Source: Schmidtea nova
Taxonomy: Eukaryota
Length of the DNA: 64,000 nucleotides
Direction of reading: 5' to 3'
Assembly: GCA_044892505.1 (NCBI GenBank)
Contig: CM097883.1
Span: 232,376,001-232,440,000, forward strand
The translations under genes were made by a program, and so were the position numbers. Numbering within the stretch: the stretch's first letter is position 1; every line of letters begins with the position of its first letter. Positions 1 through 44,254 of the stretch are shown here, in pieces. The notes below the pieces were generated by a model. It worked only from the letters and a program-made list of their open reading frames with translations. It had not been told where the DNA came from and did no database searches.

Positions 1-1385
1 GGAAACATGACCCAATTCCCGTCTGGTTTCTGATATAATGGTCCGTATGCATTACTGCAATTGAAAGGGTTTGGTTCAAAACTAACTGGGTTAATGATTC
101 TTGTCACTGGTTGTACATATCTTATTTTCCCTTTATATTCAATTTCCAATTCGTTGGTACATTGTCCTTGTCGTATTCTGGTCGTTGGTGCTAGGTTTGC
201 TTGTGTCTTTTGGCATATATATACATACATAACTTCTCCAACTACTCTTCCAAAATGACCTTCGTTAAGTGGTAATAATGGCATCGCACTATCCGGGTTT
301 GTAATTGCTACTGCTAGTTTCGTCTTTAATATTTCTCTGTTCAATATACAGTCGTTGTTAATGAGATCGTAGTATATTTTTTCCATTGATGCTTGGCCTT
401 TATGAAATAAAAAATCTAATTTGTTATTTAAATATACGTGCAATTTGATGTCTGTAGTGTCTATCTTGGGCTTTGCATTTGGTGCTGCTTGTCTTGATAC
501 ATAAATACCTGGATAATTTGTTTCTAACATAGAAACACCACATTTTAATGCCGGTTTTCCTTTTACAAACCTCATTCCTATATTTGCGTTTGATGTAACC
601 AATACTGTTGGCGTCTCTCTCATTCTCACCTCTTTTTCTTGTACTTTAGTTGTGAACGGTTTCTCTCCTTTTACTGTCTCCTGTAGACGTTTTCCTCTTG
701 CTACTTCATCATCCTCTTCTTCCTGAAAGATTTTTCCTTGTACCTCGTCGAACTCTGCTTCCTTTAATAATTGTAATTGGCATTCATTTGCTTTTGCTCT
801 GTATGTTAAAGTTGACATACCGGTTTGACAAGTACTGGCTTCAATTTTGCACATTGATAACGTCTTCATTTCTCCTGTTGCTGGGTCAAAATATGCTTCA
901 TACGCTTTTAATTCTACCGTATATGTGTCGATCACTACCATGTTAGTTGCTGGTACTCCAAATATTGGATATGTTGCTCCTTGACAGTAACCTTCTCCTC
1001 CTGTGATAGCTCCTGCTACATAATATGTTTGTTGTAGTATTACTCCAGCTTTTCCTCTTATCTTTATTCGATCTCTTGTTTCGACTTCTCCATGTTTAAA
1101 CAATTTATTGCAATCTTCTCCTTGTAACATTATCGCTTCTCTTTCCGTTCCTGGCATTACGATTGCAGAGTAGTGGCGATGTCCACAATAAAAAGCAAAT
1201 CTTGTTTTATATATTTTACATTCATTAACTGTTGTCTTTATTAAGTCGGCTTCCTGATATACGTGATATATTTGTTTACTATGTAATACTTTTAATTCTG
1301 TTGGAGTTGCATCTTTGCATTGTTCTGTTCCTCTTAATGAATATTTTTCTCCTAATGCCATCTGGTCGCAATCAAATACTTCGAA
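1..1385 (-). other. Chuvirus-type / gB-like (class III) envelope glycoprotein ectodomain (partial)
   Basis: xFDC start after a signal-like segment, YVYQ-like HVYQE, CK...YCG.H..IV motif, and a LYxxxxxxxC.L...IL...P...G....GEV....C motif typical of chuvirus-like glycoproteins found in LTR elements. Confidence 0.75.
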
Positions 1386-4300
1386 CGCCGTTGCTCCTTC
1401 AATGCTAATTAGCCATATTAATATCATCATTATGATTGAATTCAGGTTTAGTGAAGGTTTTCCACTTCTTGTTCCTGACTTTTCTTTTTCTAATTCTCCT
1501 AAAATTTCTTCAAATTTCTTTTTCATATTCTTTGCTTGACTGTTTCTTTGATTCGTTTTAGCAAATGTTTCCCATCCTCCTTTACTGATGACGTATGGTT
1601 CTATTTCTTTTGCTATGATGCTTGCCGTATTTTTGATATGTTTCTCTATTGCCGTAGATTTTGGATTACCTCTACTCAATGTTAATAAGTTATAAATTGT
1701 ATACGCAATTGCTATCACATATTTATTATCGTTTTCTGCATCTTCAGTTAACCTCTTTATCAACGTTGTGGTCCCTTGCCAATCTAAATGGCTTGATTTT
1801 GTCTTCTCTTTTATCAGTTCGGGTAAGATTGGTGCGATTGCGCTATGTAATGCTTTAGCCTTGTCGCTTATTTCGTTTATTCTCCACCATTTTTTCAATT
1901 CTGGATCAATTATCGCCAATATTTCCATTAGTGTTTTTGATATCCATCCTTCACCTTGACATTTTTGCGTTCTTTCCTGGTCTTTTGCTTCTGCTATTTT
2001 GTTGAGTTTCTTTAAACATAATTCCCATTTCTCTTGTCTCCTTTCTTCTTTTGTTTTGTTGATTACATTGGCTGGATCTGTCTTTGGTCTACCTCTAGGT
2101 CGTCTATCCATTGTTGTACCTGTTTCAATCAATCTGGTTTCTCGTCCAGTTTCTTCTGTAACATCTCTTGGTTCATTATTTTTCTGTTCCCACCATTTTT
2201 CCATTTCTTGTGTTAATCGTTCGTTTTCTGTATTTGCTCCTCTTGTTTCTTCTTCAGAGATTTCGTTCACTTCTTCTATTTCTATTTCTTGCTCAACTTC
2301 ATCTTGGGTATTGATTGCTTGTGACGTTGTGGGTAACTCTTGTACTCTTTCGAAAATATTATTGCCTTTTTCTTTTGTCAATTTTGCTAATTCTTCTAGC
2401 ATGTCATCACTGTCTGTTAAGATTTCTTCTGCATCGTATGGTTGTGGTCGAGTTCTTTCTTGGGTTTTAGTTGGTGTTGTTTCATACTGTCTTGCGCTTG
2501 TTCCTGGCTTTATCTGCATCGTCTTCCTTAGATTCTGAGTATCTCCACTTTCTTTTATTCTTTTCTCTTTAAGTTTTAATGGTTGACCTGCTATTGCGTC
2601 TACTGTTAACGTATTTGCCAGTTCTAACTGTGCTGGCGTTATCAAAATTTCCATATCGTTTTCTAGTGATCGTCCTTGATGTTGTAGATGAAATGGTGGT
2701 TCATATTTTAATCTCTTTTTAACATCTCGAATTTTTTCGGTTAATTTTACCCAAAGCTCTTCCTTTTCTCGATCTGGATATATTATCCTTAAATGTATTT
2801 TCTGCGGTGGTTCTTGGGAGTTTTCTTGGTTTCTCCATTTCTTGATTACATTGTCTAATTGTTCTGGGCACCACTCGTTAACTCGTTTATATTCTGCTAC
2901 TACCTTGGCTACTTTTCTTAAACTGATTATATCTTCGCCGCCTGCTACAAAGAATTCGGCTAATCCTTTGATCGTTCGCCTTTTTCCTTGTACATTTCCT
3001 TTTAGTAATTCAATAAGTTCGTCAGCTTTTCGTCTTTGCGTTTCTAACCATATTGCTGCGGTTTCTGGTCCATCCAAATCTGTTGGCATGACTTTTCTTG
3101 TCACCATACAAATTCTTCCAATTTCTGGTTCATATTTATCTTCCATTTCTGGTCTAAATTCTTCTTCATATATACCTCCTTTTGCTTTCCAGCATTTCTC
3201 TTTAACATCCCAGTGTTTCTCTACTGGTGTTAATCGGCGTTCGTTGAAGTTTAATTCTCCTAATACATTTTCCCATTCTGGCTGTATCTGCCATCTTCGA
3301 TAAATTTCTATTATTTGTCTTAGTTTGTGCATCGCTTCTCTTTGACGTTCTTGTCTCCTTTTTTCGTCTTTTGGTGTTTCTCTTGGTGTATCATCCATTC
3401 TGATAACATGAATTGTTTGGTAATTATCCCATATACCAATTTTATATAATCGTCTCTCATCATGATCCCCTAGTACGTGTTCATTATATTTCATGATGAT
3501 ATCGTCTACCAATTCGTCTTCTTTTTCCCGTTGTAATAAGGTTTCATTGATAACATCAACTAATTCTTCTATTGTACAATCCGCGATTACTTCAATTTCT
3601 TTTGTGTCTTCGTTTGGTAATTTCACTTTGATTTTTAAATCTCCTATTTCTCCTCGTTTAAACATCGCTTTTCCCATTTTCGCGATCACTCTCCAAGTCT
3701 TGTATGACGAATGTCTCGTATGGCTGGTATCTCGTATATTTTCGATGCATTGTTTTAATTTCTCATATTCAGTTTTCGTTAATTCTTCTCTATTCTTGTC
3801 GATTTGTTGAATAATTTGTTCTATTAGTGAATTTAAATTTTCTCTGAGAATTCTTTCTTTCCTTTCTACTAACTGAGGTTTAATTCTCATCTCAAAACAC
3901 ATATTTGCTTCCTTTGCGATTTCTTGTAAATTTTCCTCTTTCTTATTGTCGCATATTGATAATGTTGTTATCTCTCCTGGCCATATGCCTGTTTCTACCA
4001 AATGCGTTGCTCGTCTTACAAGTTCATTTCCTGAATATATGAATTTGTTTTTATATGAACTTCCCAATCTGTCTTCTATCCATCGATAAATTTCGTTTGT
4101 GCATGGAGATTTGATCCAAATTCTTGGTGAACATTCGTTTATTTCTATTAAAATTATGTATTCATGGAGTGGTTCTTCTAATAGTTTGACGATGTATCCT
4201 GATAATATCTCTATTTCACGACTTTGTAATCGTTCTTTATAGTTCATTCGGAATACTGCTCTTATAAATTTTCGATATCGCTTCTTATCAATAAATTCTT

Positions 4301-6314
4301 CGTTATAAATCACTTCTAACGCATTATCTAATAGTTTCTGAATTTCATCTTCTTTAATTTGTATATTTTCTGGCGTCTTCGCTACTTCTATCTTGTTGTC
4401 TTCATTTTCTGGTTCTTTTAGCATATCTCCTGCTAAACTACTGACATCACTGTCACTTTCTACATCTGAAAATTCTCTAGTTAAGTTTCTTAACATGTTT
4501 ATATGTGCTGTCTGTTCTACTTTATCTGGTACATTTTTTGGTGGTATCTCTTCTTTTTTGTCATTGTTTTCTGATTCTTCTATTTGGTCTCTTCGTTTTT
4601 CTATCTCCATTGCTTTTCTCTGTTTGATTTTCTCTTCAAATATCTTCAATGCTCTACTTTTGACTTTTGTTACTGGTTTTGATTTCTCTTCATCGTTATT
4701 TTCTTCTATTTCTTGGATAACTGTGACTTTCATTTTATTCATTGGTACTCCTAAATCTTTCCATATGTCGGTTGGTTTCAATTTTATTGCTGCTTCGTCT
4801 TCTGTCTGTAAAATTGCTTCTCGGGGTAGTTTCGTCGTTCCCGGAATCGTCTTATTTACTTTATTAATTAATACTCCTACTTCCTCTTTTTCATCATATT
4901 CAAATTGAAATACATGATCGTTTGGCATGACTACCAACATCCTTTTTTGTTCAATAACTTCTTCGTTTTCTTGTACTATTTCTTTTTGGTTTTCTTCATC
5001 TTCCGGATTTGGGTTTATCCGGTTTGTTTCTGGTTCAATATCTTCTTTGTTATCTCTTGTTTGCTTCGTTGCTCTCATCATATTAATTCTCAATGGTTGT
5101 CGTTCTCTTTCTTGTCGTTTCTGTTCGTCTTCTCTTTGTATTCTTGCCCATTCTTGAGCATGTCGTGCTTGACTTTCTCGATTTAGTCGTTCATTTTCAC
5201 TTTCCACTTTTCTCATCATATTCATTTGTTGTTGATTCGTTTGTTGATTTCCTCTCGGTGTATTATTTATTAACTCTGTCAATCTCTGAACTTCTTGTAA
5301 TAAATGTATTTCTTTGGTGGTACTTTTATTCTGGTTATAATTACTCTGTTGATTTTCAAAATTCTGACGGTTTCCGTTATTCTGTTGATTCGCATAACTT
5401 TGTCGATTTCCGTTGTTCGACCAATTCCTTTGTTGGTTGTTTTGTTGTTGGCAGTTCTTTGCCATATGACCTGGTTGTCCACAGTTATAACATGAATTCA
5501 GGTAACATCTACTTTCCGAATGTCCTTTTCTTCCACACTTTTTACAATTTAAATTCGCGAAACATTCTTGTTGCCAATGTCCTAACTTTCCACAGGTTTG
5601 ACATTGCTTTGTCTGTCCTTGCGTATTATAATTATTTTGGTTTCCGAAATTTTGTACTTTGTTTCCTTCATTTCTCCTTTGAGGTGGTGGTCGATTTAAT
5701 TGTTGTGAGTTCGGAATATGGTTATTTATCTTCATTGCTTGTTCGTTTTGTGTCGTATCCATTGCTAGGTAAATTCTTCCTTCACTTCCGATCATATGTA
5801 ATTCAAATCTGTTGGCGATTTCCAACGCTTCATCTATTGTTTTACAACCTTGGCATCCAACTTGTGCTCTTATATCGGGTCTTCTCAATCCCCCCACAAA
5901 AATTGCTGCCATTAATTCTGAACTCATTGGACTATTTTGATTAAATGCTAATTTAGCCAATTTCTTTAATTCACTTGCATATACTGCATTTGATTCATTA
6001 ACTTTCTGCTTCCTCATGGAAAATTCTGTAAACGCTTCATTTAATACTTTATTTATTCCAAACGTTTGCTGGAAAAAATTCTTTATCTTTTCCCAACTAT
6101 CGAGTTGATCATCTGAATTTTTTGCTTCTAAATATAAGTCTAACGCACTGTCTTTTAAATATAACTGAATTCTGCTCCTTATCGTTTCTGGTTTCCATTT
6201 ACATACTTCTACAAATATACCAAATTCTTTTAAAAACGTTTCCAACTTGCTGGCATCTCCATTGAATGGTTCTCCAGTAAATTTATCTTTGATTTCTTCT
6301 TTATGTTCGTTCAT
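1..6314 (-). CDS. Gag-Ubl-Ubl-Bcl2-like-Env polyprotein (partial; open frame extends upstream to 6773 and runs off the window at base 1)
   Basis: Manual check of this minus frame found no stop from 6773 to 1 (2257 codons). First in-frame ATG is at 6314 (MNEHKEEIKDKFTGEPFNGDASKLETFLKEF, Gag-like). Knuckles CQTCGKLGHWQQEC, CKKCGRKGHSESRC, CYNCGQPGHMAKNC at ~5455-5605. Hydrophobic segment IIMMILIWLISIEGATA at 1386-1440. Ectodomain begins FEVFDCD and includes ECKIYKTRFAFYCGHRHYSAIV and DCILNREILKTKLAVAITNPD...GEVMYVYIC. Confidence 0.9.
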   Translation of the reverse strand, partial: MNEHKEEIKDKFTGEPFNGDASKLETFLKEFGIFVEVCKWKPETIRSRIQLYLKDSALDLYLEAKNSDDQLDSWEKIKNFFQQTFGINKVLNEAFTEFSMRKQKVNESNAVYASELKKLAKLAFNQNSPMSSELMAAIFVGGLRRPDIRAQVGCQGCKTIDEALEIANRFELHMIGSEGRIYLAMDTTQNEQAMKINNHIPNSQQLNRPPPQRRNEGNKVQNFGNQNNYNTQGQTKQCQTCGKLGHWQQECFANLNCKKCGRKGHSESRCYLNSCYNCGQPGHMAKNCQQQNNQQRNWSNNGNRQSYANQQNNGNRQNFENQQSNYNQNKSTTKEIHLLQEVQRLTELINNTPRGNQQTNQQQMNMMRKVESENERLNRESQARHAQEWARIQREDEQKRQERERQPLRINMMRATKQTRDNKEDIEPETNRINPNPEDEENQKEIVQENEEVIEQKRMLVVMPNDHVFQFEYDEKEEVGVLINKVNKTIPGTTKLPREAILQTEDEAAIKLKPTDIWKDLGVPMNKMKVTVIQEIEENNDEEKSKPVTKVKSRALKIFEEKIKQRKAMEIEKRRDQIEESENNDKKEEIPPKNVPDKVEQTAHINMLRNLTREFSDVESDSDVSSLAGDMLKEPENEDNKIEVAKTPENIQIKEDEIQKLLDNALEVIYNEEFIDKKRYRKFIRAVFRMNYKERLQSREIEILSGYIVKLLEEPLHEYIILIEINECSPRIWIKSPCTNEIYRWIEDRLGSSYKNKFIYSGNELVRRATHLVETGIWPGEITTLSICDNKKEENLQEIAKEANMCFEMRIKPQLVERKERILRENLNSLIEQIIQQIDKNREELTKTEYEKLKQCIENIRDTSHTRHSSYKTWRVIAKMGKAMFKRGEIGDLKIKVKLPNEDTKEIEVIADCTIEELVDVINETLLQREKEDELVDDIIMKYNEHVLGDHDERRLYKIGIWDNYQTIHVIRMDDTPRETPKDEKRRQERQREAMHKLRQIIEIYRRWQIQPEWENVLGELNFNERRLTPVEKHWDVKEKCWKAKGGIYEEEFRPEMEDKYEPEIGRICMVTRKVMPTDLDGPETAAIWLETQRRKADELIELLKGNVQGKRRTIKGLAEFFVAGGEDIISLRKVAKVVAEYKRVNEWCPEQLDNVIKKWRNQENSQEPPQKIHLRIIYPDREKEELWVKLTEKIRDVKKRLKYEPPFHLQHQGRSLENDMEILITPAQLELANTLTVDAIAGQPLKLKEKRIKESGDTQNLRKTMQIKPGTSARQYETTPTKTQERTRPQPYDAEEILTDSDDMLEELAKLTKEKGNNIFERVQELPTTSQAINTQDEVEQEIEIEEVNEISEEETRGANTENERLTQEMEKWWEQKNNEPRDVTEETGRETRLIETGTTMDRRPRGRPKTDPANVINKTKEERRQEKWELCLKKLNKIAEAKDQERTQKCQGEGWISKTLMEILAIIDPELKKWWRINEISDKAKALHSAIAPILPELIKEKTKSSHLDWQGTTTLIKRLTEDAENDNKYVIAIAYTIYNLLTLSRGNPKSTAIEKHIKNTASIIAKEIEPYVISKGGWETFAKTNQRNSQAKNMKKKFEEILGELEKEKSGTRSGKPSLNLNSIIMMILIWLISIEGATAFEVFDCDQMALGEKYSLRGTEQCKDATPTELKVLHSKQIYHVYQEADLIKTTVNECKIYKTRFAFYCGHRHYSAIVMPGTEREAIMLQGEDCNKLFKHGEVETRDRIKIRGKAGVILQQTYYVAGAITGGEGYCQGATYPIFGVPATNMVVIDTYTVELKAYEAYFDPATGEMKTLSMCKIEASTCQTGMSTLTYRAKANECQLQLLKEAEFDEVQGKIFQEEEDDEVARGKRLQETVKGEKPFTTKVQEKEVRMRETPTVLVTSNANIGMRFVKGKPALKCGVSMLETNYPGIYVSRQAAPNAKPKIDTTDIKLHVYLNNKLDFLFHKGQASMEKIYYDLINNDCILNREILKTKLAVAITNPDSAMPLLPLNEGHFGRVVGEVMYVYICQKTQANLAPTTRIRQGQCTNELEIEYKGKIRYVQPVTRIINPVSFEPNPFNCSNAYGPLYQKPDGNWVMF
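1555..1990 (-). other. Bcl-2-like domain within the polyprotein
   Basis: Helical region ending EIEPYVISKGGWETF (1563-1601; compare Bcl-xL HLEPWIQENGGWDTF). Distance from the BH1-position Asp (LTEDAEN) to the GGW Trp is 57 aa versus 56 in Bcl-xL. The NWGR motif is not conserved. Confidence 0.6.
2601..2798 (-). other. Ubiquitin-like domain 2 within the polyprotein
   Basis: IHLRIIYPDREKEELWVKLTEKIRDVKKRL..FHLQHQGRSLENDMEI aligns by eye with ubiquitin TLEV..TIENVKAKI..RLIFAGKQLED. Confidence 0.6.
3399..3638 (-). other. Ubiquitin-like domain 1 within the polyprotein
   Basis: LKIKVKLPNEDTKEIEVIADCTIEELVDVINETL...IIMKYNEHVLGDHDERRLYKIGIWDNYQTIHVIR follows the ubiquitin beta-grasp pattern (MQIFVKTLTGKTITLEV..DTIENV...LIFAGKQLEDGRTLSDYNI..TLHLV). 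Confidence 0.6.
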
Positions 6315-7519
6315 TTCGATTCCGCTGTCTTGTGTCGTTTTACTCTCGTTTCCTCTTGTTTCACTAGTATGCTCGTTATTCGTTTCGTTTGAATTATTAT
6401 CAATTTCTGCTTCTACTTCTTCTGTGTTTATTGACTCGTTATCTGATGCTTCCGTATTATTATAATTATCGTAGGTTTCACTTGAACTTTCTTCTGTTTC
6501 ACTTTCGTTAGTTTTTGTTAATTTATTGTTTTCGATTTTTGACTTTTCTACTATTACTCTTCTTGATTTACTTCCTTTAGGATTTGTTTTCTTTGTAACA
6601 CTGGTTGCTCTTTGTTTCGATTTATTTCTCTGTGAATTATCAACTTTTTTGATTGTAGCACTAACTGCTCTTGATCTCAATTTATTTCTTTGTGAATTAT
6701 TAACTTCTTGATTTTTAACTGTTCTTGATCTCGATTTACTTCTCTTTAATTTATCAATTTTTCTGTTTCTCTGTTATCGTATTCTGATTGATTGGTTGGT
6801 TGTTTGACTTGTTCTGTTCCGTGTATCTAAATTAAAAAGTCACTTCAACGATACATCATTGTTATCGTTGCGCTTTTATTCCTCATTATTGGGTTTCCAT
6901 TGTTTCCCCATTCCCGGTTTCCCCTTTATTTAAGTCTATTTAAATTATCTATTCACTGGTAACAATTATCTATATGGTCGTAATAATTATCTATCGTTAT
7001 CAAATAAATTCATTACTTTTCCCTCAGTCTCCCAATTTAATTTGTCGCTCAAACGCTTTAATTCCCTTGAGCTCTCCTGACTCAATTATCATTTTATTAC
7101 TATTCATTATATCATCATTACTCACTATTCTCACTAATCAACTCTAATTTCTCATCATTACTCACTATTCTCACTATTTCTACCGGTTTTTTTCCGGTCA
7201 ACTCTAATTTCTCTTATTCCTATTTCTACTCGTATGCATACTGAATCTCTAGTTTACTTAATCATCTTTACTCGTATTACTCAATTTCTAGTGCTCATTA
7301 CTCTTAACATCGTCGACGATTACAACTTGGTTTTATTTCATCTCTGTTGCTTATTTATTCCCTTGGCTCTCTACGCCATAATTTAATTTATTCACTTGAC
7401 TCTTCTCTAATTTATTCACTTATTCACTTGGCTCTTCTATGCCCTAATTTAATTTATTCGCTTGACTCCATGGCCCTTCTCTAGGGAAAATACCTTCTTA
7501 GAGAATAATCACCTGCTTA

Positions 7520-8480
7520 GTTAGGCCTTTGACCCTTCTTTCGGGGTAATCTTAAATAATCTGACTTGTTTGCTCTTGACCTTTTTTTTACAAGGTATTT
7601 AACTAATATGGCTTGTTTGCCCTTGACTCTTCTTTCAGAGTATTTGACTAATATGGCTCGTTGGCCCTTGACCTTTTTGTACAAGGTATTTAACTCATCT
7701 GGCTTGTTTGCCCTTGACTCTTCTTTCCGAGTATTCAACTAATATGGCTCGTTGGCCCTTGACCTTTTTGTACAAGGTATTTACTCATCTGGCTTGTTTG
7801 CCCTTGACTCTTTTTCCAGAGTATTCAACTAATATGGCTCGTTGGCCCTTGACCTTTTTGTACAAGGTATTTAACTCATCTGGCTTGTTTGCCCTTGACT
7901 CTTCTTTCAGAGTATTCAACTAATATGGCTCGTTGGCCCTTGACCCTTCTTTCAGAGTAATTAACTAATATGGCTCGTTGGCCCTTGACCCTTCTTTCAG
8001 AGTAATTAACTAATATGGCTCGTTGGCCCTTGACCCTTCTTTCAGAGTAATTAACTAATACGGCTCGTTGGCCCTTGACCCTTCTTTCAGAGTAATTAAC
8101 TAATACGGCTCGTTGGCCCTTGACCCTTCTTTCAGAGTAATTAACTAATACGGCTCGTTGGCCCTTGACCCTTCTTTCAGAGTAACTAATATGGCTTATT
8201 TGCCCTTGACCCTTCTTTCAGAGTAACTAATATGGCTTATTTGCCCTTGACCCTTCTTTCAGAGTAACTAATATGGCTTATTTGCCCTTGACCCTTCTTT
8301 CAGAGTAACTAATATGGCTTATTTGCCCTTGACCCTTCTTTCAGAGTAACTAATATGGCTTATTTGCCCTTGACCCTTCTTTCAGAGTAACTAATATGGC
8401 TTATTTGCCCTTGACCCTTCTTTCAGAGTAACTAATATGGCTTGTTTGCCCTTGACCTTTTTATACAAGGTATTTAACTA
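7520..8480. repeat. Tandem repeat array in the element 1 leader (about 20+ units of 41-45 bp, core GCCCTTGAC)
   Basis: Alternating dimeric units at ~7590-7920, 45-bp units from 7921, and 41-bp units from ~8190. Confidence 0.95.
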
Positions 8481-9537: not shown

Positions 9538-10244
9538 TGCTAAATAATTGATATTGTTAATATGTTTGCTGTTTTATTTAGTATATAAAAAAATAAAGAT
9601 TTCAATATCTTGTTTCTCTATTTGTTCAATTTGTGTTGGTCAAAAGTAGTGGTACATTTCGTTTTCTGATGTTAAACCTCTCCCTGTTTCATCAAATTGT
9701 CGTCCCGACATATTTATTTATGTTTATTTATTTTATTTTAATATCAATTATTAATCGTCTGTTGTTATATTTATTCAATAGTTGTTTTTCAAAATTCTCT
9801 GTTGATATTGTTTTCACTTTTATACAAAAATCAATTATGTTTTCGGCTGAGGGGCACTTTAAAACTCCTGGTTATTATTGGATTCAATTTTTCGCACAAA
9901 AACCAATTTGATCCCGGCTGAGCCCCCAAATTTATGTTGTTGGTTTCGGTTGGGTTAAAACAAAAATACAAAATGAATTAATAATTATTTTTAAACGCTC
10001 TAGGGATTCCTCCATCCAAAACCTCACATAAAATGCTTACATATCACACGAGCACCCTCGATCATTTCCCTGTAATAATCGAGTTGGAAATGTGCAAGGT
10101 GTTTGAACAATGATGGGCAGGTGAGCTCTATTGCTAAAACTACTCCCCATTTATGTTCACGGGTTCGTCTCGCTGCCGATAGAAGGACTTACGCTTTAAT
10201 TTTAATCTATCCGCATCCATTTATCTTTCATTTCAATTATTTCT

Positions 10245-10350
10245 TTTCGCCCCCTTTCGTTACAATATATTTCAACTTTCAACTTTTCTTTCAGCCCCCT
10301 TCTTTACAATATATTTCAACCTTCAACTTTTCTTTCAGCCCCCTTCTTTA
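10245..10350. repeat. About 2.5 copies of a ~43-bp repeat (cagcccccttctttacaatatatttcaac..ttcaacttttcttt)
   Basis: Direct repeats visible in the sequence. Confidence 0.8.
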
Positions 10351-10554
10351 CAATATCAACAAATAATATTTTTACGATATGTTATTTCTTTAATGCTATT
10401 ATTGTTCATTACTTTATGTCAATCTTTTATTTATAATCTACATTTAATTTAATTTAAAAATCCTTTAATAAAATACTTTAGTTCATATACTTTACAATAA
10501 AATAAATACAAACAAAAATTATTTAATAAGCAAAATTTACAAATCACAAAATTT

Positions 10555-11145
10555 CTATTCAAAATATTTGGAAATGTCTTCATCTGATATTGTAAAATTC
10601 ATGTTCAAATCAATTTCTGGAATGTTGTTTGATCGTTGTGCCAATTGCTGGAGAACTTGTTTCTTCCAGCGACGCTGACGCGCGCCCATCTTACTCTTCT
10701 TTTTCTTTTTGACTTCTGGAATTATTACGTCCTTTGGTGTGATTGAGGCCGCCGTTGCTTGAACCTGAGATGGTTCCTCTGTGCTTGTTCCTTTTGAGCA
10801 TCCTGCCTTTTCGTCAGCCCAATGCTGGTAAGTGATTGGTCGAATGAGCTGGCTGAGCTCTTGAGTTAGATATGATGCCGTTACAGATTTTAGGCATTTC
10901 TTTAATTCCATCTTCGTTGCGTCCAATTCCATTTGCAGTTCGCTGTTAGCTCGCTGTGAGCGTTGAGTTTTGGTGATTTGCATTTTCATTTGGTCTGGAC
11001 TGAACCAGCTTTTCTTTAGGTTGGAAATTATTCCATCGGCTTCTTTTATTTTCTCTGACTTTCGCAGCATTTCCTTTTCCAGGCTGCGAATTATTCTCCA
11101 GGCTTTGTCTAATTCGGCTTGATTGGTTGCTGTGTTTGCTGACAT
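10555..11145 (-). CDS. Accessory protein of unknown function: coiled-coil N-terminal half plus basic KKKKKSKMGARQRRWKK segment
   Basis: Intact 196-aa ORF on the same strand as gag, with acceptor TTTTAG|AAA-ATG just upstream. Confidence 0.7.
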   Translation of the reverse strand: MSANTATNQAELDKAWRIIRSLEKEMLRKSEKIKEADGIISNLKKSWFSPDQMKMQITKTQRSQRANSELQMELDATKMELKKCLKSVTASYLTQELSQLIRPITYQHWADEKAGCSKGTSTEEPSQVQATAASITPKDVIIPEVKKKKKSKMGARQRRWKKQVLQQLAQRSNNIPEIDLNMNFTISDEDISKYFE

Positions 11146-11873
11146 TTTCTAAAATTCAAAATGGTTTATTGACATGAAGTTAGTAGTCTTGATTCGAACG
11201 ATTCTCATACCTTTGACAATTGGTAATTGTTAATTTAGGAAAAGAAAATGATGTACCTATTACGCTTTCAACACTGTCGCTATGTACAGCGATCAGATAC
11301 ATTTATTTCATAATGCATTTTATTTATTTACGCCTGTGCTATATACAGCATTCAGGATAAGAAAATTATTAAAATAAACTAAGATCCACTGCCCTATGTA
11401 CAGGGTTCAGGATAAGCAATTATGTTTAATTATTTATGTGGAATGTTTGATCCTATAGCCTATTGCTGCTATGTTACTTGCGTAGTAGATCACTACGCTA
11501 TTAAATTATCGATTTTTATGTTATTGTTAAAATTACATTTTGTACAAATTCTTAACCCTGCATCTGCCGCTCTATGCCCACAAACCCCAGATGTGACAAT
11601 CGAAAAATATAGGTTAACATTCGGTGAATTCCAATATAAAATCAGATTAGAAAAATCACAGCTATATCTGTCTCAAACTAAAATCAAAATTCAACTTAAC
11701 TATAAACTCTAAAAATTTAAATCGATTATAAAATAAAACTTCAACTGGTTATACTATCCAGTGAAAATAAGGTTAAAATCATTGTTAAATAAGAATTCCT
11801 ACCCTCGTCACGGCGCTTTACACCGGTCGGACGGCCTAACTGTACGGAGCAGTCGTTTCTACTCGGCACAGTA

Positions 11874-11881
11874 TGCCTCCA
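11874..11881 (-). promoter_or_regulatory. Candidate primer-binding site TGGAGGCA (tRNA-Thr-like 3' end)
   Basis: Directly follows ...AACA at the candidate LTR end. Only 7-8 nt match metazoan tRNA-Thr 3' ends as I recall them. Confidence 0.35.
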
Positions 11882-12514
11882 TGTTCCCGATTGCACGGTG
11901 AACGGAGCCCCTTAAATCATACGTAAGTTTATACTATAAATACGGTATATAGATAATATATATATTCGCCTCCTTCCACTGATTGCACAGTGGAAGAAGC
12001 TCGACCCAAAAATTACTTCTAAAAAATATACTTGTTAGTTGTTAGTATAAACTGATACTGTTACCTCCTTCCACCGATTACACGATGGAAGAAGCTTAAT
12101 AAAAGATATATAATATATAAATATAGTCATCTCCTTCCACTGATTTCACAGTGGAAGAAGCTTGGTTAAATTCTATATTCGACAAAAATTTAAAAAATCA
12201 TATATCATAAAATATTTTATTAACAATTAACTACAATGGTCAATGACAGATAATCACAAAATTTATAAATTCAATAAAACAAAAATACTCATACCTTTCA
12301 AGTTCTGTTCAAATATCTTTCAGTATCAAATAATCACAAGATCATAAAATCACAAAGTGTTTGTTTTAAAACTTTCAAACTTTAAAAACTTTCAACTTAA
12401 AAACTTAAAAACTGCTTAAATGCTGCTTAAATTTTAACTGAATCTGGATCAGTATATATACTGATCAGATCAGATCACTGACCAATCAGCATCAATCTGA
12501 TGGTCATCAATACA
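11882..12514 (-). repeat. Candidate 5' LTR of element 1 (633 bp, TGTA...AACA)
   Basis: TGT/ACA termini; CCAAT at 12482; TATA inside a perfect palindrome GATCAGTATATATACTGATC (12447-12466); AATAAA at ~12216-12221; followed by TGG. The partner LTR is not in the window. Confidence 0.55.
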
Positions 12515-14890
12515 ATAAAATCAAAAATAAAATCAATTTTTTTAACAAATATAATTTTCATTTTCTTGTTTTAATTTACCGATTTTTTTATTAATTCTTC
12601 TTCTTTTTTACTTATTTATTTCGCTTTCTTATTATTTAAATATAATTAATTATCATTTTTCTTTAACACTTTTACATTTTCTATTTACATTCTTCTAAAT
12701 TTTGATAGAAAATTAATATTCTTTATTACATTTTAATTTGTTTTTACTGATATTTTCATAATTATTTTTATTTTAATTTATTCTTATTTTCTCTCTTATT
12801 ATTATTATTTTTCATGCTAAATGTGGACCAAATGGTGGATCCAACAATATATATATATATACAAAAATATTTTCAATAAACTTTTGACTTCTTTCTGCTT
12901 TTCTTTCCCATAACAATGATTTCTTTTAAATTTGTTGTAATCGTAAAGGAATAATTTAAAATATAATATAAATAATAATAATTTTCTACATTGAAAATCG
13001 TGAAATATTTTGTTCAATCAATTCAAAGAAAGCCTAATTTGTTTTATACTAAAATAAATGAATTAAAATTCGGCTTGATTTAATTTGTCATAATTGTGAT
13101 TACAGTTTCTTGGCAAGCTAAATTCTGTCAAAAATAATTTTGTTTTTTATTTTTCTCTCATCGGTTTCCTCAGTGAAAATCTATCTATGGGCGTTCTTTT
13201 GTTGAGAGTTTGTTCTTTGTTTTATTTTTTGAAATTCAATTGTTTTCTAAATATTTTTATTTCATTTTATTTATTATTAATTTAACAAATATTTTTCAAC
13301 TTTGAAAGGCTATATAGAAATTATTATTTTCATTTGTTATGGAATTAATAAATGTGAGAAATTAAAAAGTCGAGATGTAGAGAAAAGAATTCAGTTAAAA
13401 ACATAAATTTATATTATTTACAATTTTCTTTCTGTCAAAATTGATGGCAAATATAATCTTATACTCAAACTCAAAAATATCATAATTTAATTACTCACAT
13501 ATTACGTATATGCGTGTTATTTTAATTATAAATATGTAAAAAATTATATTTCAAATGGCATACTAGTTTAGAGCCCATTTGGCAGTCATCAATATTGTGT
13601 ACAAATCAAACCTTGTAGACATACAGACAAGTCCGAGAACCTAAAAATGTTAATGCTGAAAATTCGTGTTAAATAAAAACAAAAGCAATTACTGATAAGC
13701 AATAAAAATAAATAAAGATAAAAAATTGTACAAGTGTCAATGGTGAAAAATCATATTTAATTAAATTTTGATTTATTTAGCAATAAAATGCTTTATAAAG
13801 TTATTTGTAATTAATTAAAAGGGGTTTAGATATTAAAAATATATTTATACAATATTTTGTTACTTTAATTGTAAATTATAAAATAATAAAAGTTTAATTT
13901 TTTAAAGTAACTTTATTAAATATCTAATTTATTCATAACATTATGAAATATATTCGTTATTTTATTAGACCGAAATATTATTGAAGAAATTATGGAAATT
14001 ATCTGACAATAAATTCCATTTCATTCAATATCTCACACATTAAAATTATATTTTTTCTTACAATTATTATATTTAAAGAAAACTAAAAGATAATATTTTT
14101 AGTTAAAATTATTGACTTTAATTTATTTTCATTCTTTTAAATTATAGATCAAACATGTTTTGAATTTAAGACAAATTTTCAAAGAAAAAGTGTGCCAAAA
14201 TTATGTGTCAAATTGAATGAAAAAAGAAAAAACATTGAAAATAAACAAAGTCCTAAAATAATTGATGAATGTTGAACAGATAAATAATTCACTATTGTTT
14301 TGTAATTATTTGTTTGTATATATTTAATTAAAATTATCGTAACAAATTTTTATTTAAAAATGTTAAGTTAGATTTTTAAAAATAAATTATTTAAAATCAT
14401 TAAATATAATTCATTAAAAATATTTATTTAAAATTTATTAAAATTTAATGTTTAAATTTCAAAATTATAAAACTTAAATGATTTATATTTCGGGTTGACT
14501 CCTCGGGTTTATCTCAAAGGACATTCAGAATTTAGGCCATTTTTACCTCATCCTATTTTGTTACATATTGTCACAAAAGAATTTGATAAATAAATATAAA
14601 TAAAATTATTTGTTATATTAAATAAATAAATAAATAAATATTGTTAATGCCGTATTTTATTATCGCTATTTATTATTTTTCATGTATTTTATGGTATAGA
14701 GACCCCCCAGTTGTATTTGGGATGGTGTTTACCAATTATTATTATTATTACTATCATTATTAAAATTCAAATTTTTAAATTGAATTAAATAGCTTACTAG
14801 AGTAATATACTATAGTAAGCTAATGACAAATAAAAAAATCAATTTTATATTTTGATATTTTAATCCGGCGTATAAACGAATTAAACAAGT

Positions 14891-33400: not shown

Positions 33401-33834
33401 CAAAATGATAAATCAAAATTTGATAATGTGGCTTTTGTACAACCCGATGATGTCAATGAAAGAATTGAAAAAGAGATAAAACAAATGGGTAAACGATTGG
33501 ATCAATTAATGTGTAAATTTAATCAGACGAAGAAACTGATAATCATGTGATGTATGAATCGCAATCAGAAGGGTCAGAGACAGATATAATAAAGGAAGTA
33601 GTAAATGATGAATTAGAAACAGAAAAAAATAAAAATGATTATGTCGAGAATAAAAATTTTAATATAGTCAATAGTAAAAGAGACATTAAAAGTAATGACA
33701 CTGCTAAAGAAATTGAGTCAAATGCCGATGAGTATACAAAAAATAAAAAGTGTACTTGAAATGTGTGCTGATTATCATAATGAGAATTCAAAAGATAAAA
33801 CTGAAACTGAGAAAATTCTTCAGAGTGAAAACAT

Positions 33835-34060
33835 GTTTAGATTTTATTGTTATTGATATTGTTGATGAAAGCAATAATGATGTGATGTGTATTCGTTGTG
33901 AAATAAGAGAGTGCGTAAAGGAGTTTAAAATGAGATTAGAGGAGAATAGTGGAAAATGGATAAAAGAAGTAAAATTTAGAAATAGATGTTTAAATGATGA
34001 TGAAGTTTTAATAAATTGTGGACTAACACCTGAGAATTAAAATATAGTATAGATAGTATT
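33835..34060 (+). pseudogene. Element 2 ubiquitin-like domain
   Basis: FIVIDI..VMCIRCEIRECVKEFKMRLEENSG..EVKFRNRCLNDDEVLINCGL matches the Ubl pattern. Confidence 0.55.
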
Positions 34061-34899
34061 AATGATTAGAAATAATGAAGTAATAAAAGATGATTCACAA
34101 AAGATTTATAAGGAATTAAAGGATATTTTGTGTAGAGGGGATGCACATAAAATTGTTAGAAAATTAAAGTTAATAGAAGAAATTGAAATTGAGAGGGATT
34201 GTAAATTAGATATTATAGATGCAATAAGGCCATATATATATATATATATATGAAAAATGAAAATATAGAGAAAGTTTAAGAAATTTAGTACGACGATTGG
34301 GCAAGGAACTTAGAAAAACTACAGTCGAAATGATTCCGTTTACAATAGCATTAGATTACGAAGATTATGGAAAACTGAATATAAAGTAGAGCATTGGTAC
34401 ACAAAAGTTCGAAAATTAAGAAAATAGCTGCTGATAGAATAGGAAAAGATGGAATTATTATTTTTATGTTTAAAGGTATTTGTACTACAAGAGTTAGATG
34501 AAAATGGATATTTATGTTCCGATACCGGAAATGGATATTTGATAAATTATGTAACAGTGATTAAGGAACAGAAATTTGAATTAATTGATAAATCTGATGG
34601 ATCAAATACAGACATAGAAAAAGATAATGAAAATGAGATTAAAGATGACAAAGAAATAAACGAAATGGTAAATGATAATAAGGAAACCAAGCAGAATAAT
34701 AAAGATGGGTGTAAAATAACAAAAGTGCAAGAATTTGAGGAAAATAAAGGCGAAATGAATAATGAAATTAATACTAAGAAGCCTAGAACTTTATATGAAA
34801 TAAAGAAAGGTCTTGTGAGATTGGAACAAGAAGTAAATAAAACCAAAGTATTATTAAAAAGTGTGACTAAAGCAATATACCCAATGTGTGAAATTGAGA

Positions 34900-35200
34900 T
34901 CGATGTAAAATATGAATTGGGAGACATAGTAAATGAAGTAAAAAACAGAATCCCTAGTATCATGCAACGATTTGGTAAAGTTTTTCTGATAAAGAGGTCA
35001 TCGAGAAATTAACTAGAAATGAAATTACTAGAGAAGTGATATTAATGAGCTTAACTTATGTAATTTTGGAAATTGGTGCTCATAACATCATGAAATCAGA
35101 TGAATTAGAAAATAAGATAGATACTTCTGCTCGAAATATAAACACATACTTAATGAGTTGGAAAAAAAAGATTGGAGGTTGGGACAAATTGATGAAAATG
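34900..35200 (+). pseudogene. Element 2 Bcl-2-like domain
   Basis: NTYLMSWKKKIGGWDKL. Aligns ungapped over 48 aa with element 1: KS..[IL]E..I...A..I......[YW]....GGW. Confidence 0.55.
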
Positions 35201-36034: not shown

Positions 36035-37737
36035 CTGTAAAATCCCGAGTATAAGCTGCAGCTAATACGTACATTAAGGCAACATTTCTGAATTGCAGCT
36101 AATATGATGTGCAGCTTATACAACTAAAAAAGAAATCAAATCGAAGATAAGATTATTTATTTCAATTTTCATCATCACACTCCTCAAAACCATCACATTT
36201 TTCATTGTCAATAAAAGTGAAATTTTCTAGTAATTCTACAATGTTTGGATCAGACTCGTTCACATTCATTTCATTTTCTTCAATTTCAAGAACAATGTTC
36301 GTCTTCACCGAATGCAACACAAAAACCATTCAAAATGGTGGAAATGTTAACATCTTCCCAAGAGGAAACAATCCATTCGAAAAAAGTATTCCAGTCAGCT
36401 GCTTTCATATTTCCGGACTTAGTATGTTTGATGTTTTCATAATCTTTAATGATCCAATCCTTCCACTTCTTGCGCAATTTTGACTTGAACGAAAGGTTAA
36501 CAGTAAGATCTAATGGCTGCACCTTTGATGTCAATCCGGCAGGTATGAAAGCTACTTTGGATTCCTTCTTAATTTTATCAAGTGTAGTACTGACAAGATG
36601 TGAGATATGCATATCAAATAAAAGCAATGATGGTACTTTTGGATCTTGGTTCCATGGTGTCTTTGGAGGTAATGTAATTCGACTCTTCCATACTTTCTTG
36701 AGCCATATCTCAAGAGTTTCATGGTTCATCCAACCAGAGCCATTAGCTGCAATAACAAGCTTTGATTCAGGAATGCAAGTCTTTGGATGTTTCTTTGTGC
36801 CCAAAATAACAAAAGGCGGAAGTTTAGTACCATCTTTGAGAACACATAGATTGACGGTAAATCGTTTTTTCTCATGTCCTGTAGTTTTAATTCGGACCTC
36901 CTTGGCACCTTTAGTCTCAATTGTGTACCCTAAAGGCATGTCACATTGAACGGACACTTCATCAAAATTACCAATTTGATTATCTGGCAAATCCTTCTTT
37001 AAATCTGCGATGGTGCTTCTAAACTTGGCCATCTGAAATTCCCAATCTTTCGGTAATTGTTGCTTCGTGGTAGGCCGTCGAACAAAAATATTCTTGCGTT
37101 TCATGAAATTATCAGTCCATTGAGAGCTCGCGACAAATCCTTCAATTTTCATCTCTTTGGCAATTACTTGTGCCTGTAAACGAATTCGAACAACCGACAC
37201 TTGAAGATCTCGTTCACGTTGAATTAGGATCCATTCGTGTAATTTCGTTTCCAATTCCGGATATCTAGCGTTACCACCACGCAATGATCTTCGATTTGGA
37301 TTCATTGCTTTGATAACAGACTCTTGGGCGATCCATCGTCGAATAACAGTTTTATTAATATCATATCGTCTTGCAACCTCCCGTATGTTTCCTAACTGAC
37401 GAGCTAATTCAATAACTTCTTTTTTCTTTGCTGAACTAAAAGATCTTCGTTGTTTCTTTTGTTTTTGTTCCAAATCGTTATCCATTTTAATCAAGGATTC
37501 AAAAAGTGCAATAAACAATATAAACGATATAAACGATTAAAACAAAATTGTTATTGTTTTTTTAATGATATTTGATATGTGTTTTTTAATGATAGGTTGC
37601 TGATTTTAAAATCAGGAGTTTCCAACGCAAATGGTGCAGCTAATACGTGCTGTGGTTTATACGACTAAAAAATACATTTTTATAAAAATGTCATCTGCAG
37701 CTAATACGCGCTGCAGCTTATACTCGGGATTTTACAG
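36035..37737 (-). mobile_element. pogo/Tigger DNA transposon, complete ends
   Basis: 28-bp perfect TIR ctgtaaaatcccgagtataagctgcagc; TA duplications at 36033-34 and 37738-39. Excision restores the env frame (FNTNYTPN). Confidence 0.95.
36286..37518 (-). CDS. pogo/Tigger transposase (CENP-B-like HTH, HTH_Tc5, DDE_1)
   Basis: RRSFSSAKKKEVIELA HTH; YPELETKLHEWI; FVASSQWTDNFMKR; catalytic NFDE, LLFD..SH, QPLD. The acidic tail appears to continue in a shifted frame. Confidence 0.92.
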   Translation of the reverse strand: MFIALFESLIKMDNDLEQKQKKQRRSFSSAKKKEVIELARQLGNIREVARRYDINKTVIRRWIAQESVIKAMNPNRRSLRGGNARYPELETKLHEWILIQRERDLQVSVVRIRLQAQVIAKEMKIEGFVASSQWTDNFMKRKNIFVRRPTTKQQLPKDWEFQMAKFRSTIADLKKDLPDNQIGNFDEVSVQCDMPLGYTIETKGAKEVRIKTTGHEKKRFTVNLCVLKDGTKLPPFVILGTKKHPKTCIPESKLVIAANGSGWMNHETLEIWLKKVWKSRITLPPKTPWNQDPKVPSLLLFDMHISHLVSTTLDKIKKESKVAFIPAGLTSKVQPLDLTVNLSFKSKLRKKWKDWIIKDYENIKHTKSGNMKAADWNTFFEWIVSSWEDVNISTILNGFCVAFGEDEHCS

Positions 37738-39365: not shown

Positions 39366-39427
39366 AAGCGTAACTGTGGTGGGGGTTTTATTTTGTCGGG
39401 CGGGCATGTCGGAGTGTATGGGAAAAG

Positions 39428-39817
39428 TTGAAAATTGTTCATAATAGCGATATAGATTATGAAGAACTGATAATCAAGTCTGTAGATGAATTGGATACTT
39501 TAATCAATACTGATTGCAACGAAAAGCCTTCTCAATGTTCAAATTGTGAAACAGTTTTAAATAACTCATTTGAACTTTTAGTTCATTCATATACTCATGT
39601 TGAACATAGTAAAGAAAATGAATTGTTTCAAATTTGCCCCAACTGTAGTAGATTATTTTTCAAAAAGAAAAAAAACAGTAAAAGCTATTTCAAAGATCAT
39701 TATAATTCTGAACATCTTAAAAAGTCACCTCCTCAATATGATGCGGAATGGATGGAAAACTGCTATGACTTTTCGCAAGAGGATTCACAAAATTCTTGGT
39801 CTCCAATTAATAAATAA
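39428..39817 (+). pseudogene. C2H2 zinc-finger protein fragment (host-like DNA inside element 2)
   Basis: CSNC-x12-HSYTH canonical finger plus a degenerate CPNC...HYNSEH finger. Confidence 0.65.
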
Positions 39818-40347
39818 AAACATTAATTGAAATCTATCTTTTGTTTGTTAGTTTGATTTCGTTAGTATTTCGTAATTGAATATGTGATTTCGAATACAAT
39901 GTAAAGCATCTTGATATATAAAAAACAGCTCATGTGCATGTTTGTAATTTCTATTAGAATAGTTATGTACATGATGATAAATATTGCTTTAAGTACGCGC
40001 GACTCGTTGTGTCTTGACATTAGTTTTCGATATTTTATCATTCTACAACTTTTGTATTGAAGCAGATTATATGTAATTTTGATTTTGCAAATATGTTTAA
40101 ATGTCGCTATTAAATAACTCTGTACAATTTTTTTATTATGATTTGTTGATAAAAAATATTTACATTATAAAAGATATATTAGATATTAATTATCGAATTT
40201 TTTTAATTATGAAGGTTGTTTATATATTCAAGAATTGTAAAGGAGTTGTTTTTAAAAAATATAATTTTTGAAATTGGTTAATGATAGTTAAATGGTTTTA
40301 AAGAAAGTACTGTTTGATAAATTACGTTTATTTCACAATTACCGAAT

Positions 40348-40605
40348 ATGGATGTACAATCAAATTCCTATGTCAGCAATTTCTTAATAACATGTTATTC
40401 TTTACTAAATAATTATTCATCATTTTACGAAGATAAATTGACAAAACTAGAAGATGATGAAATGTTTTTGATCGCACAGTTAAATGCAATCGAAACTAAA
40501 TTAGAATCGGCAGATAGATTAAAGAGCGATAATATAGTTCCTACTGTAACTAAAGAGGAAGTCACCAAAGAAACGATTAACCTGAAAGCGTACAAGTGGA
40601 AATAA
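40348..40605 (+). pseudogene. WASHC3: WASH complex subunit 3 (CCDC53)-like 5' fragment, apparently continuing at 44186-44254
   Basis: YVSNFLITCYSLLNNYSSFYEDKLTKL...LNAIETKLES resembles CCDC53 FLNQF...FLNRFS..CEEKL..L...LNILDAKLSS. Downstream ISKHPKDKKHF resembles KDPRYARY. Confidence 0.6.
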
Positions 40606-40618
40606 TTCATAAGGGAGA

Positions 40619-40727
40619 TGTGAGATAATAAGACAATTTAAATATTTATTCAGTCAATAAATCTACTTATTTAAACAACTTTATTTTCTTTTATAAATCA
40701 TTATTTTAAATTATTCTTCTTTATACA
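40619..40727 (-). repeat. Element 3 3' LTR
   Basis: Identical to 44077-44185. Confidence 0.97.
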
Positions 40728-41611
40728 TCTCCCCGAGATTCTAACAAATCTTCATTCCTGTGCCTCAAGTCAGCTACATGACGCGGCATTGCCACGGTTC
40801 CGTAATCGACGATTGCTTTATGCGGAGACAGCAGCTTCATGATTCTTCCTCTCATCCAGGAAGATGTACATGGTTGATTTTGCGCGGGTTTCACCCACAC
40901 CTTGTCGTTAATCTGAAAGCCATTGTCTATTTGTTGAGCCGTTCTTTTCGTTTCATTAAATCGAAGTCTTAGGTCATAAGCGTAAATGCCTTTTATCGGA
41001 GGTCTGGAAGAACCATTTACTGGTGTATTATTGTACCAGTAAATTGCTTCTTGCACTGAGCATTCCGATCGCGTGACTGCAGCTTTTATTGTTTTATGGT
41101 TCCTCTCAATAATGCCGTTGCCTGCTGGTCTATTAGCGGATCTGAATTCAGTTCTAATTCTCCACCTTTTCATTAGAGAAGTGAAAGTTTCTGACCTAAA
41201 CGATAAGTAATTGTCCAACAGAAGCTCGTCAGGAGGTCCTCTTTCATAAAATACCTGTTCCAACTGTTTGCAAATTTCGTCTGCGCTTTCGTTTCGTATT
41301 TCTCGCCAAATCGCAAATCGAGAAGGCCCGCAATCTATGATTGTTAAAAATTTTCTTTGATGTAATTTAGTCACATCGATAGCTAATCGTTTCCAAGAAT
41401 CTTTTACCTCTAATTGCCCTTTGCTGATCTTAACCGGATGAGGGTCTATTGATTGACATTTGTCACACTTTTCGACTATCTCTTTTAACTCATTTTGAGA
41501 AAGGTTAATTCCTGCTTCCTCGGTCAAGAACCTCAACCGATCTCCTCCGAAATGGCTTAATTTGTGTATTTCAACTGCGTTCTTGATGGGATCTTCACCC
41601 GGGTCTAGCAA
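40721..41611 (-). CDS. Element 3 integrase (in frame with RT/RH but behind one TGA at 41639-41)
   Basis: HKLSHFG...CDKC zinc-binding motif; LAIDV, LLLDN, GIIERNH catalytic DDE; stop lies inside the 3' LTR. Confidence 0.9.
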   Translation of the reverse strand: MLDPGEDPIKNAVEIHKLSHFGGDRLRFLTEEAGINLSQNELKEIVEKCDKCQSIDPHPVKISKGQLEVKDSWKRLAIDVTKLHQRKFLTIIDCGPSRFAIWREIRNESADEICKQLEQVFYERGPPDELLLDNYLSFRSETFTSLMKRWRIRTEFRSANRPAGNGIIERNHKTIKAAVTRSECSVQEAIYWYNNTPVNGSSRPPIKGIYAYDLRLRFNETKRTAQQIDNGFQINDKVWVKPAQNQPCTSSWMRGRIMKLLSPHKAIVDYGTVAMPRHVADLRHRNEDLLESRGDV

Positions 41612-41638
41612 CGCCGTATTACACGTATGTTTCGTAAT

Positions 41639-44064: not shown

Positions 44065-44076
44065 GCCCGGATAGCT
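44065..44076 (-). promoter_or_regulatory. Atypical PBS AGCTATCCGGGC, complementary to nt 1-12 of tRNA-Lys(UUU)
   Basis: Plus strand reads GCCCGGATAGCT, the known 5' end of metazoan tRNA-Lys3. It abuts the LTR CA and there is no TGG-type PBS. Confidence 0.75.
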
Positions 44077-44185
44077 TGTGAGATAATAAGACAATTTAAA
44101 TATTTATTCAGTCAATAAATCTACTTATTTAAACAACTTTATTTTCTTTTATAAATCATTATTTTAAATTATTCTTCTTTATACA
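44077..44185 (-). repeat. Element 3 5' LTR
   Basis: Identical to 40619-40727. Confidence 0.97.
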
Positions 44186-44254
44186 GGAGATTTAACAACA
44201 GACAATTTCATTGAAATTTCAAAGCATCCTAAGGATAAAAAACATTTTTATATA

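Follow-up and report, generated by a model that had tools for sequence, protein, structure and literature searches.

The polyprotein of a giant gypsy-type retrotransposon in the planarian Schmidtea nova carries, between its Gag and Env regions, two strongly diverged segments that we predict to be ubiquitin-fold domains (hereafter Ubl1 and Ubl2), neither of which ends in di-Gly. They occur in the window, by which we mean the whole 64,000-nucleotide stretch that was analyzed (contig CM097883.1, positions 232,376,001 to 232,440,000). As the initial annotation had it, both segments lie between Gag and Env, specifically within the open frame 3-6773 (-), with three CCHC knuckles before them and the Env domain PF24664 after. 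We consider them a real feature of the element; the fold is supported, not proven, and more firmly for Ubl2 than for Ubl1. A Ubl at this place is already known for Burro elements, in which a PF11976 Ubl precedes BCL-2 and Env in frame (PMC6431247), so the gain is incremental. What is new here is the number of Ubls, their boundaries, the selection acting on them, and the loss of the Ile44 patch.

The open frame that carries both segments is 2257 aa long and runs off the window into the adjoining genome stretch, where it adds the rest of Env, an aspartic protease, and ankyrins and reaches a total of 4140 aa. The order in the polyprotein is Gag, helical and Ubl modules, a Bcl-2-like domain, class III Env, protease, and ankyrins. 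A Gag capsid-like region with the three CCHC knuckles is found at 5445..6296 (-) (PF00098, E=4.2e-10; the capsid label follows from sequence pattern and published architecture). The class III fusion glycoprotein (Env) occupies 1..1382 (-) (PF24664, E=1.6e-43), with its remainder in the adjoining stretch (L031), and it stands in frame between Gag and the protease (PF24664, then RVP). Between Ubl2 and Env, at 1539..1955 (-), is a Bcl-2-like domain. The window copy of this domain has no Pfam match when searched alone, and it scores 21.2 bits with a profile of sister families B and C (0/200 shuffles as good); a pooled Bcl-2-like profile matches Bcl-xL at E=6.7e-7. A hydrophobic internal segment at 1383..1451 (-), with a hydropathy peak at aa 1779, is likely both the Env signal peptide and the tail anchor of the Bcl-2-like domain. 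The Bcl-2-like domain (window 1383-1955 region) stops just ahead of this signal peptide, and families B and C have the same layout. There is also an AT-hook-like motif at 2082-2102, between Ubl2 and the Bcl-2-like domain, which recurs in family A (the family of the window copy) and family C sisters, and short imperfect tandem repeats are arrayed at 7500-8470, between the 5' LTR and gag.

The 5' LTR (9935..12846 (-)) and its partner, which is outside the window about 25 kb away, have the same sequence (100% identity over 2912 bp). Downstream of the 4140-aa frame, also beyond the window, is a TRAF-type ORF (MATH, zf-TRAF) with a RING-like cysteine pattern that was read directly from the sequence; the element's own RING E3, which the initial annotation had offered as a possible partner of the Ubls, is this ORF. 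Elsewhere in the genome (C2, about 405-455 Mb), short frames that match the MATH domain are densely clustered. They probably represent an expansion of TRAF genes of the host, from which the TRAF ORF of the element may derive. The element is repeated in the genome, with at least 115 matches (from 114 scored of 3083 candidates), and frames of 4108-4140 aa are common to many copies. The window copy retains the protease and is without RT, RNase H, and integrase. The order PR-RT-RNase H-integrase is found in sister copies L045 and L046, with frames of ~5140 aa, and L049 has RNase H and integrase. The window copy, with one open 4140-aa frame, identical LTRs, and none of these three enzymes, belongs to a recently mobile non-autonomous subfamily. 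A search of sequencing runs returned no RNA run among those listed.

By its architecture, the element appears to be a Burro-type giant gypsy (Burro/GYPSM1) retrotransposon, an assignment made on domain order rather than on Burro1-4 sequences or an RT tree. As in the published elements, a single polyprotein starts with Gag and CCHC knuckles and includes a PF11976-type Ubl, a BCL-2-like domain before an in-frame Env, and ankyrins, and it is accompanied by a MATH/TRAF accessory ORF (PMC6431247). The LTRs are long, the size is in the Burro-type range (about 25-30 kb), and the 5140-aa frames of the sisters equal the length published for one element (PMC6431247). The window copy differs from Burro/GYPSM1 in lacking RT, RNase H, and integrase, and family A differs in having two, likely three, Ubls, whereas one is named in print (PMC6431247). 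We found no report of several Ubls in Burro in a literature search, although figures or supplements outside that search may show some.

The initial annotation had read a ubiquitin beta-grasp pattern in both segments. This reading is borne out by the ESM Atlas, a homologue in family D, and leave-out profiles, but not by Pfam, in which no match is above cut-off, or by structure prediction (pLDDT 35-37). Ubl1 (3390..3644 (-), aa 1044-1128) is a predicted ubiquitin-fold domain with moderate support, and Ubl2 (2583..2810 (-), with aa 1322-1395 at 2589-2810) is a predicted SUMO-like (PF11976-type) domain. A helical bundle precedes Ubl1 at 3645..3851 (-) (generic three-helix matches, Z <6), and Ubl2 has a helical leader at 2811..3026 (-) that is common to family D by homology (pN/pS 0.17-0.19). 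The profile search against the ubiquitin clan (CL0072) that had been proposed as a check came out negative, with no segment of the window above the curated cut-off; the best match, of Ubl1 to OTU1_UBXL (E=0.0059), reaches 17.6 bits vs. a cut-off of 22.7, and the unrelated DUF2573 matches Ubl1 equally well (E=0.0058). Ubl2 of the window copy has no Pfam match. Clan matches in three subfamilies do, however, point to a Ubl fold for Ubl1. In the ESM Atlas, the top match of Ubl1 is a ubiquitin cluster (0.92, 152/256 features). For Ubl2, unnamed clusters come first and are followed by Rad60-SLD/ubiquitin clusters (0.90), and the best named matches (10/10) are in one clan. It should be noted that the features shared by either Ubl number 142-157, whereas true family members typically share 170, and that scores >=0.9 arise in 4-10 per 100 shuffled proteins; we give these neighbors moderate weight, as leads.

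Firmer support for Ubl2 comes from family D. Ubl2 and its helical leader align with the family-D module at 36% identity over 131 aa (BLASTP E=8e-34), and the family-D Ubl in turn has a sub-threshold match to PF11976 (E=5e-4, 20.4 bits vs. a cut-off of 23.8). When a profile of Ubl2 and its family-D homologue was compared with the PDB, the first match was a 41-aa chain (9jo6_B, E=0.0038) and SUMO1 followed at E about 1, with unrelated matches between. Profiles made without family A place Ubl2, the segment at 3948-4166, and Ubl1 as the top three matches in the 2257 aa. With family D included in the leave-out profile, Ubl2 scores 20-21 bits (0/200 shuffles as good). The corresponding score for Ubl1 is 6.0 bits in subfamily L045 (0/200 shuffles) and -0.4 bits in the window copy (30/200), and with a B+C-only profile both Ubls are near 0 bits and are equaled in 9-33/200 shuffles. 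We also pooled 13 domains of the elements into a profile that contains no ubiquitin. It matches the ISG15 C-domain at E=6.5e-7 and NEDD8 at E=3e-4, and almost all of the 60 rows shown are ubiquitin-family chains; this profile is partly circular because its rows were picked by eye.

Other comparisons gave no ubiquitin-like signal. Two-sequence profiles matched nothing ubiquitin-like in the PDB, and a profile of true ubiquitin misses both segments, whose identity to ubiquitin is 13-25%. AlphaFold2 gave a mean pLDDT of 36.6 for 356 aa folded alone and of 35.2 for 590 aa folded with an alignment of 11 rows from family A; in the latter model, values of about 50-62 were reached solely in the helical bundle before Ubl1. 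Mixed MAFFT alignments of families A, B, and C lost register and were excluded from folding. Foldseek returned no match at E<=0.001, rows to FERM, RA, PB1, and ubiquitin variants for Ubl1 in the PDB and Foldseek results were non-significant, and VIA-align recovered helical bundles only (Z up to 5.9). In hhalign comparisons, no significant similarity links the family-A Ubls with one another or with those of families B and C (probability 10 or less). Searches of protein libraries with aa 600-1780, the 356-aa region, and the pooled Ubl alignment yielded no homologue; a lone match among 1.84 billion representatives was judged spurious. Taking these lines together, we hold it very probable that Ubl2 has the ubiquitin fold, and we regard the same conclusion for Ubl1 as probable. 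The opposing possibility, that one segment, most likely Ubl1, is a beta-grasp look-alike, draws on the sub-threshold Pfam match with an unrelated family scoring as well, on the low-pLDDT models, and on the rate at which shuffled proteins reach Atlas scores >=0.9. We think it improbable, given that the Atlas, the Pfam clan matches in three subfamilies, the 6.0 bits of L045 (0/200), and even the non-significant PDB/Foldseek rows agree.

The two Ubls are probably not the only such modules, and three features described in this article were absent from the initial annotation: the Bcl-2-like domain, a third candidate Ubl, and a second Ubl in element 2. The third candidate (3948..4166 (-), aa 870-942), preceded by a helical segment at 4167..4352 (-), has no Pfam match and is tentatively included as the second-best leave-out match (shuffles equal it in 5-15/200); on balance we lean toward a ubiquitin fold for it. 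A possible fourth small alpha/beta domain (4704..4940 (-), aa 612-690) follows the Ubl pattern by eye only, with no support from Pfam, PDB profiles, or leave-out tests, and its having the fold is doubtful. Each Ubl comes after a helical stretch of roughly 60 aa, and the number of modules varies by family: two, likely three, in A; two in B (element 2); one in C; and one in D. Pairwise homology among the B1, B2, and C1 modules extends across 89-124 columns (hhalign probability 88-97; B1 vs. B2, 96-97), whereas family-A modules are too diverged to be linked in this way. For the helical leaders, homology is clear only within the B and C modules and is weak when the leaders are compared alone. The family C Ubl matches PF11976 at E=2e-3 (18.2 bits vs. 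a cut-off of 23.8). In 3/3 Env-bearing families examined (A, B, and C), a Ubl precedes Bcl-2.

Element 2, the family B copy in the window, had been credited with one Ubl at 33835-34060. That domain is present (about 33834..34046 (+), with stops near its end), but it is not the sole one: a second, SUMO-like Ubl is found at about 34333..34568 (+), with frameshifts and stops here and an open frame in sister copies L047, L051, and L052. Beyond it is a frameshifted Bcl-2-like domain (34875..35190 (+); PF00452 in a sister copy, E=5.6e-5). The Env of element 2 is interrupted by a DDE_1 transposase (36286-37536), and after the start of the protease there is a ~5 kb insert (39400-44300) whose (-) strand encodes another RT, RNase H, and integrase, the frame resuming near 44322. 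An ORF at 55785-56768 of the window has a GIY-YIG endonuclease domain (E=1.9e-6) and is presumably part of a Penelope-like element. Family D (L084:2186-9022, L081) has an ORF of about 1045 aa that consists of a helix and Ubl module, about 25 aa upstream of a protease, and ankyrins. Neither Gag nor Env nor RT was detected in it, and TRAF and BIR-RING (IAP) ORFs follow. Family D copies are 98-100% identical (150/150 scored), and because of this selection need not be the reason that their frames are open.

The statement that neither Ubl ends in di-Gly holds throughout the copies fetched, with Gly-Gly after the last strand in 0/41 Ubl1 tails and 0/41 Ubl2 tails; as a control, it is present in 3/3 true ubiquitins of a BEL/Pao-like element in the same genome. 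(Regex counts for B1, B2, and C1 tails include spurious matches and are not used as counts.) A single Gly after the last strand of Ubl2 is invariant in 6/6 rows, down to 47% identity, and is found in 38 of 39 tails listed (41 counted); it is absent after Ubl1 and after the B and C Ubls. At the position of Ile44 in ubiquitin, 9/9 family A/D rows have Lys or Gln, in a register that agrees with MAFFT for Ubl2 and that is set by motif anchoring for Ubl1, for which MAFFT places the strand differently. The Leu8-Ile44-Val70 hydrophobic patch of proteasome-binding UBLs (Rad23/Dsk2 type) is thus not seen; position 70 of Ubl2 is Asp, Ala, or Glu, and Ubl1, read in the motif-anchored register, retains His68 and is hydrophobic at position 70. 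None of the late-domain motifs PTAP, PPxY, and YPxL occurs in the first 1800 aa. Ubl1 is strongly acidic (23 D/E vs. 11 K/R). In comparisons with three sister subfamilies, pN/pS is 0.10-0.24 for Ubl1 vs. 0.09-0.24 for capsid and 0.16-0.24 for Env, and 0.31-0.32 for Ubl2, close to the flanking linker (0.33-0.43). Both Ubls are under purifying selection, and both are intact in 29/29 top-scoring copies, a set biased toward intact copies.

These observations bear on what the domains might do. Recruitment of the proteasome or ESCRT, raised in the initial annotation, is disfavored because the Ile44 position is Lys or Gln and because PTAP, PPxY, and YPxL are lacking. The Ile44 patch is what Rpn10/Rpn13, UBA, UIM, and UEV domains use, and mimicry of ubiquitin toward proteasome receptors or ESCRT ubiquitin-binding domains has further against it the polar or small residue at position 70 of Ubl2 and the failure of a true-ubiquitin profile to find the segments. 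An enveloped element without a late-domain motif might gain from another route to ESCRT, and Ubl1 does keep His68 and its hydrophobic neighbor at 70, but we judge this mimicry quite improbable. A variant of the pestivirus strategy, with Ubl2 as a processing signal after which a host protease cuts at a single Gly, as UFM1 and ATG8 are processed, would account for the near-invariant Gly of the Ubl2 tails. Yet that Gly falls short of ubiquitin position 75-76, no such residue follows Ubl1 or the B and C Ubls, and the aromatic residue that ATG4 needs is missing, which leaves this reading very improbable.

The Ubls might instead serve the cycle of the element itself, as spacers, as aids to folding, or as adaptors for assembly that bind Gag or RNA or feed substrates to the protease, for which coronavirus nsp3 Ubl1 and the Ubl of Ddi1 are models. 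Conservation of Ubl1 to the level of capsid, an acidic Ubl1 that would fit a basic nucleocapsid partner, and the closeness of the family D module to its protease speak for such a role. A range of one to about three modules among families, and the retention of a module by family D in an ORF in which Gag was not detected, speak against it, and we consider it unlikely. The reading we favor, tentatively and at somewhat less than even confidence, is that the segments are integral, non-conjugatable docking domains that engage host SUMO/ubiquitin and cell-death proteins together with the Bcl-2-like domain.

If Ubl1 and Ubl2 are such docking domains, they would be neither modifiers nor signals for cutting by the host. 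The aspartic protease of the element could free them from the polyprotein, as we infer because four subfamilies have, at aa 563 and 758, a motif that resembles the N terminus of the protease; a variant of it is seen in the alignment near aa 1222, between Ubl1 and Ubl2. The motif was defined post hoc and is weakly enriched (49/500 shuffles reach 2 in the window protein, and 7/500 reach 4 in L045). Were these motifs protease sites, Ubl1 would leave with the third module, and Ubl2 would stay joined to the Bcl-2-like domain, with the Env signal peptide (aa 1779) as a membrane tail anchor. Ubl2 may then act like a SUMO-like domain of the Rad60/NIP45 type, as a scaffold or decoy for E1, E2, or SIM proteins, and the TRAF and IAP RING ligases of the accessory ORFs possibly act alongside it. 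A complex prediction for the TRAF ORF with the helix and Ubl2, made from single sequences, gave a median of 0.33 vs. a mark of 0.34, a result that counts neither way as to binding. The effect of such docking would be that the host cell better survives expression of the element. The Burro1 IAP is reported to protect stem cells from apoptosis (work cited in PMC13465017), and Burro1 is reported to be expressed once PIWI silencing is lost (PMC8532177); the co-occurrence of TRAF and IAP ligases, taken with this reported anti-apoptotic IAP, points to host survival signaling. A more elaborate version, which we advance as speculative and rather unlikely, is that the helix and Ubl module was tandemly amplified (one, two, and three copies) into a SUMO/ubiquitin decoy and E2 scaffold for the TRAF/IAP ligases of the element, membrane-tethered with the Bcl-2-like domain via the Env signal peptide, and that it rewires ubiquitin and death signaling in stem cells.

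Several known systems offer partial likenesses. The proposed docking domains resemble the PF11976 domains of Rad60/Esc2/NIP45 in their integral SUMO-like fold (predicted here) and in having no di-Gly, but the scores of families D and C are below cut-off, and Ubl2 of the window is itself unmatched. Coronavirus nsp3 also has two diverged, non-conjugatable Ubls (Ubl1 and Ubl2) in a membrane-tethered polyprotein product, with other partners and in another virus class, and no homology is implied. Ddi1/DDI2 combines a Ubl, a helical domain, and a retropepsin in one chain. Family D comes closest to this layout, although here the helical part is before the Ubl, and in the window element Bcl-2 and Env stand between the Ubl and the protease. 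Pestiviruses likewise carry a host-derived ubiquitin-family module within a viral-type polyprotein, but their ubiquitin or ubiquitin-like insertions have changed little and terminate in a Gly motif that can be cleaved. The segments described here, at their low identity to ubiquitin, differ from these insertions because they are predicted ubiquitin-fold domains without di-Gly, as had been proposed.

A true pestivirus-style arrangement is found elsewhere in the same genome. The high-copy BEL/Pao-like element (L054:4156-9252, L055:5175-9998, L059:4539-9635) encodes, immediately upstream of Gag and in frame with it, a near-intact ubiquitin that has its di-Gly. Ahead of this ubiquitin is a patchwork of host-gene fragments that includes Hsp70 (Pfam E=1.9e-79) and what we take to be calmodulin-, HECT-, and reductase-like pieces. 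The PF11976 matches of this element were above cut-off in 150/150 scored, most of them in frames that range from several hundred to 2300 aa, and three were fetched; a literature search on the ubiquitin-before-Gag arrangement in BEL/Pao-like elements found nothing.

Planarian genomes are rich in Burro elements, one of which is reported to aid stem-cell survival via an IAP. The presence of several conserved, non-cleavable Ubl modules in the spacer between Gag and Env of such an element would provide small domains with which to probe how the element deals with the ubiquitin and apoptosis pathways of its host.
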